The notes beneath the pieces were generated by a model that made no database searches, was not told where the DNA came from, and saw only the letters and a program-made list of their open reading frames with translations. From a virus (taxonomy: Duplodnaviria > Heunggongvirae > Uroviricota > Caudoviricetes), in IMG/VR virus record IMGVR_UViG_2541047692_000008, positions 1 through 54,354 of that record: a stretch of 54,354 nt of DNA. One strand, given 5' to 3'. Within the stretch, counting starts at the first letter, position 1; every line of letters begins with the position of its first letter. Positions 6,283-17,767 of this stretch are shown here, piece after piece. Made by a program: the position numbers and the translations under genes.

Positions 6283-7227
6283 TCATTGGCAGCAAACAAT
6301 CTCTTTGTATGCTTCTTCTACCATGTAGAATACTTCCGGACTGTAATAGAAAAACTCATTACTACCATTAAATTTTACAGGAAAGTTAATTTTATAATTG
6401 CTAAAAGCCTTATGCATCGTTCTTTCTAATTCATATATATTTTCGGTTGGTCCATATAGCGTTTTCACGATATGCAAATCAGGAATTATAACGCCTGCTT
6501 TATGTGCGCTTCTTAATACCTGATTTCTTCGCTCGTTCTCCTTAACACTTACACCTATTTTCATTTGTGTAGGTACTTCCAGATCATCAACCATGATGTA
6601 AAGTTTTCCGTGATCGTGGGATAAAAACCCGTATTTCGCGCATTTCTGGCAACCGCGCCCGTGTTTAATGTTGCAAGGTCTAGCCGACCACTCATGATCA
6701 CAGACCTTGCAGCGGCATAATACTTTTGTTTTGTCATTAACAATTTCACCTATCACTTCGATATTGGGATTAACCTTTGCAATAGCTGCAACTTGTTCTT
6801 CATGCGTCAATCTTTTTTGTCCTTGCTTTAATCTTGCGCATTTCGGGCAACCCATCCCGCGCTTAAGGTCGCCAGGAATAGGCGACCATTTATGATCGCA
6901 AACTTTGCAGCGGCATAATACTTTTGTTTTGTCGCCAGTAATTTCCCCCAATACTTCAACATCAGGGTTAACTTTCGCAATAGCTGCAACTTGTTCTTCG
7001 TGTGATAATATTCGTTTTTGCGCGCGTTTTAATACCCCGCATTTCTGGCAACCGTTACCTCGTTTAATGCTGGCAGGCTTAGTCATCCACTCATAATCAC
7101 AAACTTTGCAGCGGCATAATACTTTTGTCCCGCTGTTTACTATTCTCCCTAACACTTCAATATCAGGATTAACTTTCGCAATAGCTGCAATTTGCTCTTC
7201 ATGCGTCATCTTGCGCGGCATAATCAC
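6283..7227 (-). CDS. Zinc-ribbon triple-repeat protein with C-terminal T5orf172-like domain
   Basis: 314 aa; three about 66 aa repeats HEEQ(V/I)AAIAKVNP..KVLCRCKVCDH.W....K.G.GC.KC (two CxxC pairs each); C-terminal ...YIMVDD...KIGVSVKENERR...ELE..MHKAF...EFFYY resembles T5orf172/GIY-YIG-related pattern (recalled, not searched). Confidence 0.6.
   Translation of the reverse strand: MIMPRKMTHEEQIAAIAKVNPDIEVLGRIVNSGTKVLCRCKVCDYEWMTKPASIKRGNGCQKCGVLKRAQKRILSHEEQVAAIAKVNPDVEVLGEITGDKTKVLCRCKVCDHKWSPIPGDLKRGMGCPKCARLKQGQKRLTHEEQVAAIAKVNPNIEVIGEIVNDKTKVLCRCKVCDHEWSARPCNIKHGRGCQKCAKYGFLSHDHGKLYIMVDDLEVPTQMKIGVSVKENERRNQVLRSAHKAGVIIPDLHIVKTLYGPTENIYELERTMHKAFSNYKINFPVKFNGSNEFFYYSPEVFYMVEEAYKEIVCCQ
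6625..7206. repeat. Intragenic tandem repeat, about 198 bp x 3
   Basis: gcagcggcataatacttttg recurs at 6709, 6907 and 7109; corresponds to the three zinc-ribbon protein repeats. Confidence 0.8.
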
Positions 7228-7608: not shown

Positions 7609-8655
7609 TCAAAGAGCGCCAGCGCGCGTATCACGTAGCGTTTTTGGTTTAAGCAGGAAATCAAGTGTCGCGGTGAAGCCATCGCCGAAGTAAAAATCTG
7701 AAGCCGTGTTTTTGAACGTTTCGAAGTAGGCGACAAAGCCGTTAATGCTTTTGTCTTTCAGGTAGTCAGTGAACGCATAGATCTTGCGTTCAAGATCCCG
7801 ATCCAGTTCGGCAGGTGGTAACAGGCCGTCAAACGTGCTGTTAAATGCTTCCACCACGTCGGCAGCGTTTACAGTGGCTGACAGTTTGCGCCATTGTTCA
7901 GCATCAGTCAGATACCCATCAAATTTAGTTACCCGGCAAATATTGATAGGCTTAGGTGTTCCACCACGGCTACGCCATTGCGTTAAAGCCCACTCAATCA
8001 CTAATGTGATCTCATCCTCCGTATACGCTTTACGTGTTTTTGTTTCTGTCAGTAGTTCGATGAATGGCTTCGCATCACGACATTTGCATCCTGCCTTGTC
8101 GTTGTAGAAGGCCAGGCAACGCAACGCCGCTTCGTTTACGCCATCCTGATTGACTATTTTTTGTTCATTTTCGACAATACACGAAGTGTATATATCTTTT
8201 TCTCTTTCTTCTTCTACTTCTAATTCATGACCCTTTCCTGACCCGGTCATGACCCTATCATGACCTTTTTGTGTTGGATTGATTAACTTTTCTAATTTTA
8301 ATTGCTCCTTAGCTGTGTTTATGGCGGCCCTGTAAGCGCTTTTAGAAGTCATTGATTGGTCCAGCCTTTTTAATAACTTTAGGCAAGTTATGTGGCCTTG
8401 AGAACATTCGAACAAACCGATTTCGATGAAGTATTTCATCATTTCTTCTATACGTTTTTCAGTCGATCCGACGTTTCGAGCAATGATTCTCGCGTCATGT
8501 CGTAGGTCAAAAGTCAGATTGTGCTGATCTACGTCATAAGTTATTAGTTCGAGGCAATACCAATAAAGCCCGTACCCTTCCAGGCCATAATCTAACAAAA
8601 CGTTTTGAAGTTTTTCATCGCGGTTCGCATCGCTGTCATGCTTAAACCACTTCAT
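7609..8655 (-). CDS. Phage replication initiation protein (DUF4373-like N-terminal domain)
   Basis: 348 aa; N-terminus MKWFKHDSDANRDEKL...YGLEGYGLYWYCLELI matches the Lin1244/Lin1753-type N-terminal pattern of phage replisome organisers; position upstream of helicase. Confidence 0.65.
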   Translation of the reverse strand: MKWFKHDSDANRDEKLQNVLLDYGLEGYGLYWYCLELITYDVDQHNLTFDLRHDARIIARNVGSTEKRIEEMMKYFIEIGLFECSQGHITCLKLLKRLDQSMTSKSAYRAAINTAKEQLKLEKLINPTQKGHDRVMTGSGKGHELEVEEEREKDIYTSCIVENEQKIVNQDGVNEAALRCLAFYNDKAGCKCRDAKPFIELLTETKTRKAYTEDEITLVIEWALTQWRSRGGTPKPINICRVTKFDGYLTDAEQWRKLSATVNAADVVEAFNSTFDGLLPPAELDRDLERKIYAFTDYLKDKSINGFVAYFETFKNTASDFYFGDGFTATLDFLLKPKTLRDTRAGAL

Positions 8656-8658
8656 AGA

Positions 8659-8926
8659 TCATCCCTCCGGCAACATCACTACATAGACATCACTGAATGC
8701 ATCAAGACGACAAACAAATCCTTTATCCATTAACGCGGCGAAGGCATCATGTACCGTATGAACAGGAAGTTCACACGTTGCGGCTACTTCTTTGCGTGAT
8801 GCATCATGTACCCGTCCTTTGTTATCTGCCTTTTCAGCCAGAGCCATTAAGACAAGTTTTTGAATCGGGCTATTAAGTTTTACGTTCCATGCTTTACTAA
8901 TCATGTTTATACTCATCGCATTTTCT
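8659..8926 (-). CDS. HTH DNA-binding protein at Cro position (early regulator or replication-associated)
   Basis: Track ORF starts TTG at 8994; ATG at 8926 (MSINMISKAW...) has aggagaaaa RBS; motif KLVLMALAEKADNKG typical of HTH_36-type winged helix; first gene of operon divergent from the repressor. Confidence 0.55.
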
Positions 8927-8994
8927 CCTATGGTTAGAGTGAACGCGCGGGCGGGCATCCCATTAGCATTAGATAGCAGTGACTGACCGCTCAA

Positions 8995-9221
8995 CAGATC
9001 CCGCCGTTGCGTGATATTTGTTTTTCGCTTCGCAGCGACACCGGATTTTTAAAGAGCATAAGGTAAGTGCCTTTTTGTGCCTTCCGTTATCTTTTTCCTT
9101 GCGTCTTTGCAAGTATGGCCTTACCTTGTCTGCAAGTTTACAAAATGGAATTTTAAGATCAAGGCTTAAAATACACGTTTTGTGACTTGCATCAAACTTT
9201 TTGAGGTTATAGGGTAGCGAC
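8995..9221. promoter_or_regulatory. Divergent immunity-region control region with candidate operators
   Basis: CTTGC/GCAAG inverted half-sites at 9097-9114 and 9124-9137, ACTTGCA at 9185-9192, plus GTTTACAAAATGGAAT at 9136-9151. Confidence 0.45.
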
Positions 9222-9869
9222 ATGAAAACAAAATGGTATGACTTAGCAAAGCAGCTCATGCGGGCGCAGGGCATGAGCCAGGATTCGCTCGCGGATCGTA
9301 TGGGGATAACTAAAGGCGGCCTGTCACACTGGCTGAACGGTCGCCGAGAGCCAAATCTTGAAGATATTGCGCGGATTATGCGCGAGCTTGGTCGTCGGCA
9401 GTTTACTGTTACACATGATGGCATGGTCATTGATGATTCTGTTTCTAATACACTTCAGGCCGTGCCGCCGCGTGATTTAGGTAGTTACCCGGTTATTGAC
9501 TGGAAGGACACAGTAAACAATATGGATGACGCAAGGCGTTCAGCATTACGACACGTTACGACTAGCGTTATTTGTTCAGATGACAGTTACTGGCTGGTTG
9601 CCAAAGGTGAATCAATGAACGCGCCGCAGGGGTTGAGCATCCCGGCGGGGACGATGATACTTGTGGACCCGCACGCGCCAGCTATTGACGGCAAACTGGT
9701 TATAGCCCAGCTTGAGGAAGGGCAGATACCGACGTTTAAACAGTTGATTATTGATGGAGGTCAAAGGCTTTTACGTTCGCTCAATCCGCTGTATCCGCCA
9801 ATCCCTATGAATCCAGAATCAAAAATTATAGGCGTGGTGGTTGATGCGAAGATCGTAAACCTGCCATAA
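9222..9869 (+). CDS. cI-like repressor (HTH-XRE + S24 LexA-type peptidase)
   Basis: 215 aa; N-terminal HTH (MSQDSLADRMGITKGGLSHWLNGRR), C-terminal S24 signature ...VAKGESMNAPQG...GTMILVDP...GKLVIAQL. Confidence 0.85.
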   Translation: MKTKWYDLAKQLMRAQGMSQDSLADRMGITKGGLSHWLNGRREPNLEDIARIMRELGRRQFTVTHDGMVIDDSVSNTLQAVPPRDLGSYPVIDWKDTVNNMDDARRSALRHVTTSVICSDDSYWLVAKGESMNAPQGLSIPAGTMILVDPHAPAIDGKLVIAQLEEGQIPTFKQLIIDGGQRLLRSLNPLYPPIPMNPESKIIGVVVDAKIVNLP

Positions 9870-9875
9870 ACATTA

Positions 9876-9899
9876 GCCGCCGAATGGCGGCTTTTCTTT
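9876..9899 (+). terminator. Rho-independent terminator after repressor gene
   Basis: gccgcc-gaat-ggcggc stem-loop followed by ttttctttg. Confidence 0.6.
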
Positions 9900-10274
9900 G
9901 CCTGGAAAACACCAAAACGTAAACAGAAAACGTTATTTATTATTTAAATATCAATGGCATATAAAATATTTTAAAAAAGTATACAAAATGGATTGACTCG
10001 ATGTTTTACGGGGCGTATATTGCGAGTCAAAGGAAGGGCGCAGGTAACAAAAGCAACTTCCTGGCACTTTAAAAATCAGGCTTAACACCTTGTCAACCGT
10101 GGAGTAACTCCCCGATGGGGGACCGAAAGCGGCACTGATAACAAGGCGCATGGGGTGTTTAAAGCGTTACATCCCCCACGAAACCGCACGCAAGGCGACG
10201 AGTCAGCTTGCTTGGAGTGAGCAAGGTCACGCCGGGAACGGCGATGATTGCGGGATTAGTTGAAAGATGTTAAG

Positions 10275-10313
10275 CCGCTCATTAACAATCTGGTCAGCCG
10301 CTGGAAGTGCGGC
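10275..10313 (+). promoter_or_regulatory. Candidate nut site (boxA-like CGCTCATTAA + boxB-like hairpin)
   Basis: cgctcattaa resembles boxA consensus CGCTCTT(T)A; 11 nt later gccgc-tggaagt-gcggc hairpin with purine-rich loop; about 60-95 nt upstream of the N-like ORF. Confidence 0.45.
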
Positions 10314-10408
10314 AATTAACGAAGATGATTTTTTATTAAGTATCATCAAGGATATACGGAGATCAGATTATGAGCGTTACAATTATATATGGTAAATGTG
10401 ATAGCAAA

Positions 10409-10660
10409 ATGAATGCCAGGGAACGCAGAAGGATAAAAAGAGAAAACGAAAGAAAATCATCACCTGCAATCAATAAAACAGACAATGTGGATAAAGCTAT
10501 TCGATTTGCAAACGAGGAAAGATGCAAACCAAATAGCATTAAAGAACGTCGCAAAGGATCAGTAAAATGGTATACGGAAAATGAAAGCGGCAGCTACTAC
10601 CACGCAACGCAACCACGCCATTTAGGGGAAAAACCCCTGGATAAAGTCCGCTACCATTAA
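10409..10660 (+). CDS. N-like antitermination protein candidate (arginine-rich motif)
   Basis: Track ORF 10370..10660; internal ATG gives N-terminal MNARERRRIKRENERK arginine-rich motif like lambdoid N proteins; small basic protein at start of operon. Confidence 0.45.
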   Translation: MNARERRRIKRENERKSSPAINKTDNVDKAIRFANEERCKPNSIKERRKGSVKWYTENESGSYYHATQPRHLGEKPLDKVRYH

Positions 10661-10806
10661 TACAAAATGTAAACATCCGGAGATGACATTATGGTTATTC
10701 AGGCGCTTCAATTCAAACTGGCAGTAGCGGAAATGCTTCACGATGCCGAAATGTGGAGCGCCGCGAATAAAGCCTTATACATAGTGTTAACAGCACGGGA
10801 GATTAA

Positions 10807-11451
10807 ATGGTGAAAACAGAGTTACATAAAAAGCTATGGACGGTTCAGCAAACGCTGAACGCGCCGAAAAATCAGCGTAATAATTTTGGTGGATATAATT
10901 ACAGGTCGGCGGAGGATATTTTAGAGGCGGTTAAACCACTGCTTCAAAGTATTACGCTGACTGTAAGCGATGAAATTGTCCTGATCGGCAATCGCTATTA
11001 TGTGAAAGCTACGGCGACGCTAAGCGACGGTGAAGACGAAATAGCGGTAACGGCTTACGCCAGGGAAGAAGAAAGCAAGAAGGGAATGGACGCAAGCCAG
11101 CTAACAGGTGCGACATCAAGTTACGCGCGAAAATATGCTTTGAACGGTTTATTCTGCATTGATGATGCGCGAGATCCTGATACTGACGCATACGCTAAGC
11201 AGACAGGCCAGCAGCCTCGCCAGCAGAAAAACCCACCAAAACAACAACCACAGCAGCAGAAAGCGCCGCCAAATCCTGATGAAGTATTAGCACGTTTCTG
11301 TGATGCAGCAGCGAAAGCGCAGGACGCTAACAAGCTGCGTGAAATATTTGGCAAATGCTGGAAATTACTACCGGAAGGATCGGAACATCGAATCAAGGCA
11401 AAAGATGTTTATGACATCCGGGTAGCAGAGCTTAACGGGGAGATGGGTTAA
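10807..11451 (+). CDS. erf: Erf-family single-strand annealing protein
   Basis: 214 aa; LNAPKNQ..NFGGYNYRSAEDILEAVKPLL...IGNRYYVKATATLSDGE...GMDASQLTGATSSYARKYALNGLF closely parallels P22 Erf as recalled. Confidence 0.85.
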   Translation: MVKTELHKKLWTVQQTLNAPKNQRNNFGGYNYRSAEDILEAVKPLLQSITLTVSDEIVLIGNRYYVKATATLSDGEDEIAVTAYAREEESKKGMDASQLTGATSSYARKYALNGLFCIDDARDPDTDAYAKQTGQQPRQQKNPPKQQPQQQKAPPNPDEVLARFCDAAAKAQDANKLREIFGKCWKLLPEGSEHRIKAKDVYDIRVAELNGEMG

Positions 11452-12400: not shown

Positions 12401-12516
12401 GCATGGTAAAAATTGCGGCATTAGCCGCCGCCTTCGTTATTGGGGTGATTTATATCACAGCTTCTTTTTATGTCGCCGTTTTTATTGCTGAATTAATTGT
12501 TGCATTGTTGGGGTGA
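12397..12516 (+). CDS. Small single-helix membrane peptide (39 aa)
   Basis: Hand-found: MSMVKIAALAAAFVIGVIYITASFYVAVFIAELIVALLG; ATG overlaps previous stop (ATGA). Confidence 0.35.
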   Translation: MSMVKIAALAAAFVIGVIYITASFYVAVFIAELIVALLG

Positions 12517-14658: not shown

Positions 14659-14851
14659 ACATTACATGGAATGGAAAATTCCAGAAGCAGCAACAAAGGC
14701 AGCGCCAGGAAATGTTTCTGGCGTTTATTTTTATATGGATGGCAAATGGTATTTCGGCAGCAGGCCGGATCGCTACTATCAAGAAATATGCAAGCCTCAC
14801 GTATGGGATATTAAAGAGCGCGTGAAAGGCGGGGTAATTGAGGACGTTTAA
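14648..14851 (+). CDS. Hypothetical protein (67 aa)
   Basis: ORF in operon context. Confidence 0.45.
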   Translation: MKFKHYMEWKIPEAATKAAPGNVSGVYFYMDGKWYFGSRPDRYYQEICKPHVWDIKERVKGGVIEDV

Positions 14852-17646: not shown

Positions 17647-17767
17647 TAATGGCGCTTTTCGCCTTGTTCTGGTGCATCCATTTTGTATACTTCAAGCAAA
17701 CAAAATGCTCTTTAAAAATCCGGCAGCGCTGAAATGCGTAGAAATCACCTGAAAAGGAGAGAGCATT

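Follow-up and report, generated by a model that had tools for sequence, protein, structure and literature searches.

A probable N-type antitermination module, nutR1 and gp17, and an optional structured leader module in an mEpimmI-group temperate coliphage

The stretch of viral DNA analysed here (IMG/VR record IMGVR_UViG_2541047692_000008, positions 1 to 54,354; hereafter the window, 54,354 nucleotides (nt) in full) carries, in rightward order, a gene for a CI-like repressor, a terminator, a 96-amino-acid (aa) open reading frame (ORF) corresponding to gp17 of coliphage mEp021, a Kil-like ORF, erf and ssb. The minus-strand leftward operon contains a helix-turn-helix (HTH) gene (8659-8994) and a Lin1244-type replication gene (7609-8655). 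Over the 831 bases around the locus, identity was 99.5% with Escherichia phage MagusPhagus, 93-96% with mEp010, mEp515 and mEp021, and ~91%, with a gap, with mEp013, mEp554 and mEp044. By these identities the window is an mEpimmI-group temperate coliphage, either another isolate or another species of the mEp021 group; mEpimmI phages have been described as Nus-dependent, non-lambdoid temperate coliphages (Negrete-Mendez et al. 2025, PMC11893012). We interpret the leader and the ORF as nutR1 and gp17 of such a phage, an N-type processive antitermination module, with a probability of about 0.9.

The nutR1 boxA, CGCTCATTAACAA, starts with the decamer CGCTCATTAA (10276-10285), which has a single exact copy within the window, and is followed 11 nt after the decamer by the boxB hairpin GCCGC-UGGAAGU-GCGGC. 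All three elements lie where they had been placed by the first-pass annotation, a reading of the letters made without database searches, and the RNA folding that it proposed showed a hairpin of -10.1 kcal/mol on its own that is retained when the leader is folded in full. The boxA decamer alone occurs at chance level in the window (77 matches with up to two mismatches vs 66 expected); the composite pattern GCTCWTTAA-N8-14-CGCTG-N3-5-GCG occurs exactly three times, and in none of 100 shuffles. As that pattern was composed after the sites were known, its weight rests on the two other copies, which match the places given for nutL and nutR2 in the literature. The nutR1 hairpin was rejected as an intrinsic terminator, there being no T run directly 3' of the stem. 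The spacer between boxA and boxB (AAUCUGGUC, 10287-10295) can, by prediction, form 9 bp with GAUCAGAUU (10361-10369), between the gp17 Shine-Dalgarno sequence and the AUG; boxB would lie inside such a helix, which could block the start of translation and is weaker or absent in phages with other classes of the Gp17 arginine-rich motif (ARM) described below.

Absence of any second nut-like site had been named by the first-pass annotation as grounds for refutation; two sites of this architecture were found, one on the minus-strand operon and one on the plus strand. The leftward site, nutL, reads TGCTCTTTAAAAA-TCCGGTG-TCGCTGCGAAGCGA (9058->9025) and is located past the leftward promoter region, ahead of the first leftward gene. 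It was kept in all 14 aligned relatives, its loop varying only by GCGA->GUGA (GNRA retained) and by a closing-base change. The second rightward site, nutR2, reads TGCTCTTTAAAAA-TCCGGCA-GCGCTGAAATGCGT (17706-17739) and is placed 3' of the gene for a 252-aa cytosine methyltransferase homolog and 5' of a ninF-ninG-resolvase-Q block, as in mEp021. Both loops (U-GCGA-A in nutL, U-GAAA-U in nutR2) read as GNRA tetraloops, and the nut sites sit on the sense strand of early operons, 3' of the promoter and with terminator-like sites downstream. A third exact copy of GCTCTTTAA (14820, minus strand) was rejected as a nut site, since it runs antisense to the rightward operon and no hairpin follows.

Gp17 matches PHROG 271, 'anti-termination protein N-like', at 1.3e-13 over residues 1-95, and lambda N falls in the same family at 4e-23; the MagusPhagus record gives its gp17 homolog the same label. 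The ARM that had been likened to those of lambdoid N proteins is borne out: MNARERRRIKRENERK, starting at residue 14, is in register with the motifs of P22 gp24 and lambda N (Gp17 NARERRRIKR / P22 gp24 NAKTRRHERR / lambda N DAQTRRRERR). Arginines R17, R19, R20, R21 and R24, numbered from ATG 10370, are all present, and R17, R19, R20 and R24 were reported to be invariant in 48 genomes (PMC11893012). The alignment with N proteins that had been suggested as a check held for P22 gp24, against which a Gp17-family profile gave E = 3.9e-4 (hhalign) in an alignment that spans the N-terminal extension, the ARM and a D-V-KAI motif; with lambda N it yielded only a short RK...WY match in the C-terminal third (lambda N residues 76-85, hhalign E = 0.013), the sole similarity seen to C-terminal regions that would bind NusA and RNA polymerase. 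The match of Gp17 to PF25694 (N_peptide), which is the P22 gp24 family in Pfam, was likewise in register, and PF11438 (N36) did not match. The family is narrow, with 31 clusters at a minimum of 60% identity, and no relatives of Gp17 were found in GTDB species representatives.

The start of gp17 needed revision. The first-pass annotation had considered a product begun at the internal ATG 10409, so that the ARM would be N-terminal; this codon is CTG or ATA in mEp515, mEp021, mEp013, mEp044, mEp554 and many other relatives and was rejected as the start. ATG 10370 and the GGAG 8 nt upstream of it are invariant in 8 aligned phages, and the 13 residues that precede the ARM are conserved as protein (xxxxI[IM]YG[KN]C[DE]SK) even in relatives of ARM class B, whose Gp17 is 70% identical, and resemble MTVITYGKS of P22 gp24. 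Together, the variable internal codon, the invariant upstream ATG with its Shine-Dalgarno sequence and the conserved extension indicate that gp17 starts at 10370 and that the ARM is internal, as in the N protein of P22.

Comparison among prophages, IMG/VR contigs and metagenome contigs revealed six forms of the nutR1 hairpin, all of which fold as drawn: GCCGC-UGGAAGU-GCGGC, GCUAC-UGAAAU-GUAGC, UGCAC-UGAAAU-GUGCA, UCGC-UGAAAU-GCGA, GCAC-UGAAAA-GUGC and GCUC-UGAAAA-GAGC. The inner three pairs are paired in 100% of the forms, with 5 double-change cells, a score that 0 of 500 shuffles reached. Phages of ARM class A, to which the window belongs, share the first form without variation, and compensated stems replace GCCGC/GCGGC in the other classes; most forms have GAAA tetraloop-like loops (read as U-[GNRA]-N), UGGAAGU being the exception. 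The type of ARM goes with the type of loop (...IKRENERK with UGGAAGU, ...MKRAAEQ with UGAAAU, ...LKRAGKVKD with UGAAAA), and in 106 locus reads, redundant ones among them, ARM class and boxB class always co-segregated. A recombinant Gp17 (P0020, at 701-991 of locus L199) obeys the same rule: its N-terminus and ARM are of class B and its C-terminal half is of class A, a mosaic that points to recombination within the gene just after the ARM, as among lambdoid N genes. A scan of metagenomes contributed 23 loci, all at least 88% identical, and no new diversity.

The anatomy of the locus, its homology, the conservation of its three sites, the covariation of the boxB stem and the linkage of ARM type to boxB type are observations from this phage and its relatives, and its function is read by analogy with mEp021, from whose literature antitermination activity, Nus dependence and the use of three nut sites would carry over. 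In mEp021, Gp17 was demonstrated experimentally to be an N-lambda-like early antiterminator by Valencia-Toxqui et al. 2023 (Arch Virol 168:92), as cited in PMC11893012. According to the latter, three nut sites respond to Gp17: nutL lies upstream of the repressor gene, nutR1 precedes gp17, and nutR2 follows the gene for the cytosine methyltransferase. That paper also reports Nus-factor-dependent read-through of terminators with mEp021 Gp17 and in Nus-dependent mEp phages. On this model, loss of the CI-like repressor would allow the promoter at 9993-10021 (pR) to fire, producing a transcript with a ~340-nt 5' untranslated region (UTR) ending in boxA and boxB, from which gp17 would be translated. 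The Gp17 ARM would bind the boxB loop on the nascent RNA, a contact that we infer, as we do the transcription start sites, and Gp17 together with host Nus factors at boxA would render RNA polymerase resistant to termination. Polymerase modified in this way would pass downstream terminators such as the equivalent of mEp021 TERM_2 (12415-12431) and a strong terminator-like hairpin downstream of nutR1 at 14701-14725. Acting also at nutL, in the leftward replication operon, and at nutR2, ahead of ninF-ninG-Q, Gp17 would permit expression of early and then late genes.

Several observations weigh against identifying the locus as an N-type module, or limit how far the identification can be pressed. 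The published experiments were made on mEp021 and not on this phage, and nutR1 was assigned by relative position and not matched base for base to the published coordinates in MH706966. Its boxA is one base off consensus (GCTCaTTAA), and its 7-nt loop UGGAAGU is unlike the UGAAAW loop of the other ARM classes and of nutR2. The UGGAAGU loop could form GGAA within a U-G closing pair, one U being bulged, or a GGAAG pentaloop closed by U-U. In protein comparisons, BLASTP detected no similarity between Gp17 and lambda N, phmmer of Gp17 against PDB sequences retrieved no N protein, and Gp17 scored 15.9 bits on PF25694, below the gathering cut-off of 27.9; lambda N itself scores just 16.4 bits on that model, which implies that the Pfam N models are subfamily-specific. 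In addition, nutL is the same in phages with different ARMs, so the pairing of ARM and boxB types may reflect linkage and not binding specificity. Taken at their strongest, the unenriched decamer, the sub-threshold N_peptide match and the BLASTP result would suggest that boxA and hairpin fell together by chance, ahead of an unrelated small basic protein without a role in antitermination. We consider this reading effectively refuted, and hardly credible, given three sites of the same architecture at the positions known from the literature, a stem that covaries, a protein that shares PHROG 271 with lambda N and an N-terminus in register with P22 gp24, and experiments published, as cited above, on a 93%-identical mEp021 protein.

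A subtler proposal is that the hairpin at 10297-10313 serves mainly as an operator that governs gp17 translation or stability, similar to N autoregulation in the lambda N leader, leaving nutL and nutR2 as the only real nut sites. The hairpin lies just 56 nt before the ATG, the predicted fold includes the long-range helix between the spacer and the translation initiation region, and nutR1 is, in its loop and boxA, the most aberrant of the three. That helix is nevertheless not retained in class B, C and D relatives, nutR1 is counted as a functional nut site in the literature (PMC11893012), and boxB type tracks ARM type as would be expected of a binding site. We judge the proposal improbable as a replacement for antitermination, although the two roles are not mutually exclusive. 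The suggestion of the first-pass annotation, an N-like antiterminator with its nut site, is supported.

Compared with mEp021, no difference of substance was found: Gp17 shares 93% aa identity with the window protein, the ARMs are identical bar M14L, the nutR1 boxA and boxB sequences are the same, and the positions of nutL and nutR2 and the gene order agree. P22 gp24 (PF25694) resembles Gp17 in having an ARM from about residue 14 after a short conserved extension (MTVITYGKSTFAGNAKTRRHERR in P22, MTVTIMYGKCDSKLNARERRRIKR in the window) and in the D-V-KAI motif; their C-terminal halves are unrelated. P22 nutL consists of GCTCTTTAAC, 9 nt and GCGCU-GACAA-AGCGC, the same layout as the window sites with a similar CGCUG...GCG stem; the window loops are U-GNRA-N tetraloop-like or 7 nt long, in contrast to the GACAA pentaloop of P22, and the window differs from P22 further in its three nut sites and in having the N gene on the operon that runs in the direction of the repressor gene. 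Placed by eye, residues 1-22 of lambda N and 14-35 of Gp17 have M, A, RRR, R, A and N in common (8/22), and both proteins carry RK...WY in the C-terminal third. Lambda and the window also share the nut layout of boxA, spacer and 5-bp hairpin, and an N-like gene placed first behind its nut site, with a Kil-like ORF and recombination genes after it. In contrast to lambda N, Gp17 has no counterpart of W18, possesses a 13-residue N-terminal extension and is served by three nut sites, and most mEpimmI members carry a structured insert of ~200 nt upstream of nutR1. In lambda, an RNase III hairpin lies downstream of nutL.

Since the Gp17/nut system is already published for mEp021, its identification here adds nothing new in itself. 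Beyond PMC11893012, our analysis contributes comparative support for boxB, the strict co-inheritance of ARM and boxB types, the assignment of the N-terminal half of Gp17 to the P22 gp24 type, by which the start codon is fixed, and an apparent promoter of its own next to nutR2. These refinements, together with the rightward promoter and the leader module, leave the classification of the locus unchanged. The features are collected in Table 1.

Table 1. Coordinates of features at and around the gp17 locus, with the basis of each assignment.
Feature	Coordinates	Strand	Basis
nutL: boxA TGCTCTTTAAAAA (9058->9046) and boxB UCGCU-GCGA-AGCGA (9038->9025)	9025..9058	-	nut-pattern scan; -6.5 kcal/mol
CI-like repressor (HTH and S24 peptidase), homolog of mEp021 Rep021/gp15	9222..9869	+	Pfam HTH_3 1.5e-12, Peptidase_S24 5.8e-19
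Intrinsic terminator ending the repressor transcript, equivalent to mEp021 t1/TERM_1	9875..9892	+	7-bp stem, 6 GC pairs, T run
Early rightward promoter TTGACT-17-TATATT	9993..10021	+	best sigma-70-like site (10/12) in 13-kb scan
Extra boxA-like element GCACTTTAAAAATCAGG, 5' edge of module	10064..10080	+	15/17 identical to GCTCTTTAAAAATCCGG of nutL and nutR2
Optional GC-rich structured leader module, closed by helix GGCTTAACA/TGTTAAGCC	10079..10277	+	fold, conservation, clean absence in relatives
Variable hairpin within module, CTTGCTT-GGAGT-GAGCAAG	10207..10225	+	covariation
nutR1 boxA CGCTCATTAACAA	10276..10288	+	sequence reading; decamer at 10276-10285
nutR1 boxB hairpin GCCGC-UGGAAGU-GCGGC	10297..10313	+	11-nt spacer after boxA decamer; fold; covariation
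gp17 Shine-Dalgarno GGAG	10358..10361	+	8 nt 5' of ATG 10370; kept in all aligned relatives
gp17, N-like antiterminator, 96 aa	10370..10660	+	PHROG 271; 93% aa identity to mEp021 Gp17
Gp17 ARM MNARERRRIKRENERK, residues 14-29	10409..10456	+	in register with P22 gp24 and lambda N ARMs
Small Kil-like ORF, 40 aa, directly 3' of gp17	10691..10813	+	phrog_34942 3.7e-32; phrog_2055 (Kil) 1.4e-3
Terminator-like hairpin 3' of nutR1, at mEp021 TERM_2 position	12415..12431	+	the mEp021 record has TERM_2 after mEp021_22
Candidate third early promoter TTGTTC-16-TATACT	17664..17691	+	14 nt upstream of nutR2; shared 32-nt block
nutR2: boxA TGCTCTTTAAAAA (17706-17718) and boxB GCGC-UGAAAU-GCGU (17726-17739)	17706..17739	+	nut-pattern scan

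The leader differs in length and composition from its first description. The first-pass annotation had noted a 370-nt untranslated leader, whereas the gap from the repressor terminator (9875-9892) to ATG 10370 measures 477 nt and contains the early rightward promoter, which leaves a 5' UTR of ~340 nt. Both promoter hexamers are invariant in 8- and 11-sequence alignments, and the divergent relatives L016 and L017 have TTGACA-17-TATAGT and TTGACA-17-TATATT. Transcription would start near 10028, and in relatives that lack the leader module boxA lies ~40 nt from the predicted start. An 8-bp inverted repeat, TTGACTCG (9993-10000) and CGAGTCAA (10023-10030), flanks the pR promoter and is a candidate operator, as are several CTTGC...GCAAG palindromes just 3' of the leftward promoter region (9100-9135, minus strand). 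The repressor ATG lies 8 nt past a TATAGG hexamer, and its mRNA may be leaderless, like that of lambda cI.

The supposition that the leader may hold further RNA elements proved well founded in the form of an optional structured module of ~200 nt. In mEp013, mEp554, mEp044 and the loci L016, L017 and L172, about 215 nt of leader (core 10079-10277) are lacking, with clean edges. The module has a GC content of 0.55-0.58 vs 0.32-0.38 in its flanks, folds as a closed multi-helix domain (-79.1 kcal/mol, z = -4.0) and is 93-100% identical wherever it is present, even where the flanks, boxB and gp17 diverge to ~70%. It occurs only upstream of nutR1 and is confined to this phage group: a 15-mer from the module matched 112 stretches in IMG/VR, blastn among the loci compared found the module in 34, each adjoining sequence that matched nutR1-gp17, a search of plasmids found none, and a search of phages at E ≤ 1 returned the same five phages only. 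Rfam searches of 9700-10900 and 10050-10330 (E ≤ 10) gave noise and no relevant family, and ARAGORN predicted no tRNA or tmRNA in 9800-10500. At the 5' edge of the module, the extra boxA-like element (10064-10080) shares the exact 11-mer CTTTAAAAATC with nutL and nutR2 and is invariant in module-bearing relatives; this 11-mer was the only match when the leader was compared by BLAST with the rest of the window for antisense targets and paralogs. The nutR1 boxA itself is usually degenerate in phages with the module (CGCTCATTAA, CATTCTTTAA or TTCTCTTTAA) and always contains GCTCTTTAA in those without it, in which the site reads TGCTCTTTAACAA.

Among 18 distinct versions of the module, 17 variable columns are unpaired and 12 are paired, of which 9 keep their pairing and 3 are singletons that break a pair. 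The pair-keeping changes comprise three compensatory pairs, all in the hairpin at 10207-10225, and wobbles that make sense on plus-strand RNA only. In loci L008-L010, L173 and L199 this hairpin reads ATCACTT-GGATT-GAGTGGT, which differs from the window by the three compensatory pairs and one U-A/U-G change, and it changes together with the ARM and boxB class. From these comparisons the evidence for selected RNA structure appears moderate, with low diversity underlying it.

Two readings of the module were weighed. We give roughly even odds to its being neutral inserted DNA, or a small gene, gp16, annotated within it (10150-10263): mEp013, mEp554 and mEp044 are viable without the module, none of the 18 variants interrupts the gp16 ORF, diversity is low with covariation resting largely on one lineage, and both strands fold equally well. 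As a protein gene, gp16 was rejected on its substitutions, which are mostly non-synonymous and radical (5 synonymous vs 11 non-synonymous, including Q->W and G->C), and PGAP calls no gene at its position. Neutral DNA, for its part, sits uneasily with near-identity between flanks that have diverged so far and with the retained pairing, wobbles included, at nine of the twelve variable paired columns. We tentatively entertain, as possible though short of probable, that the module is a self-contained and previously undescribed functional RNA domain that has entered the leader of the N gene, flanked by a degenerate boxA copy on one side and the nutR1 boxA on the other. Such a domain might regulate gp17 expression or nut-complex assembly in cis, give rise to a processed small RNA, or bind a protein or ligand. 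If functional, the module would represent a new RNA element in an N-antitermination leader for which natural plus and minus variants exist as controls. Neither the module nor the promoter beside nutR2 is discussed in PMC11893012, and the module is the only item in this analysis that might be new biology.

The candidate promoter beside nutR2 was recognised through a 32-nt block, GCCTTG[A/T]TCT-N9-TCCATTTTGTA[A/T]ACTT, common to the region upstream of nutL (9165-9135, minus strand) and the 45 nt before nutR2 (17660-17705, plus strand). The block reads as a -35/-10 pair (TTGTTC-16-TATACT) and is conserved in 7 relatives while adjoining bases vary, which suggests that nutR2 has a pL-like promoter of its own, located after TERM_4. 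Such a promoter would offer a possible reason for the presence of three nut sites in mEpimmI phages. A 13-mer, GTWTACAAAATGG, is strongly over-represented in the window, with 22 matches at up to two mismatches vs 3.9 expected (positions include 5148, 6270, 9136, 9979, 17610, 17678, 24119, 32193, 40187, 40216, 42804, 43195 and 44788). Copies occur in the control regions of pL, pR and nutR2 as well as in the late region, where two of them are followed by ACAGATCACATTT; a regulator of the phage may bind the 13-mer, or it may belong to a phage-specific promoter.

The genes and signals around the locus are those of the mEp phages. Homologs of the CI-like protein are labelled repressor in the mEp021 record and cI repressor in other mEp phages. 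The hairpin at 9875-9892 scores as a terminator on both strands, and its counterpart is annotated in mEp021, mEp010 and others. The Kil-like ORF also matches Pfam Lambda_Kil at 2.2e-4, below threshold; weak as this similarity is, the succession of gp17 and a Kil-like ORF echoes the N-...-kil layout of the lambda pL operon. In the prophage of E. coli E21845 (L010, 2243-2710) a gene for an HNH endonuclease lies between the kil-like ORF and erf, which indicates that the early region tolerates small insertions. On the minus strand, a 314-aa protein (6283-7227), homolog of the mEp021_12 'zinc-ribbon domain protein', consists of three tandem repeats of ~60 aa (HEEQ[IV]AAIAKVNP...), each with CxxC...CxxC zinc-ribbon motifs.

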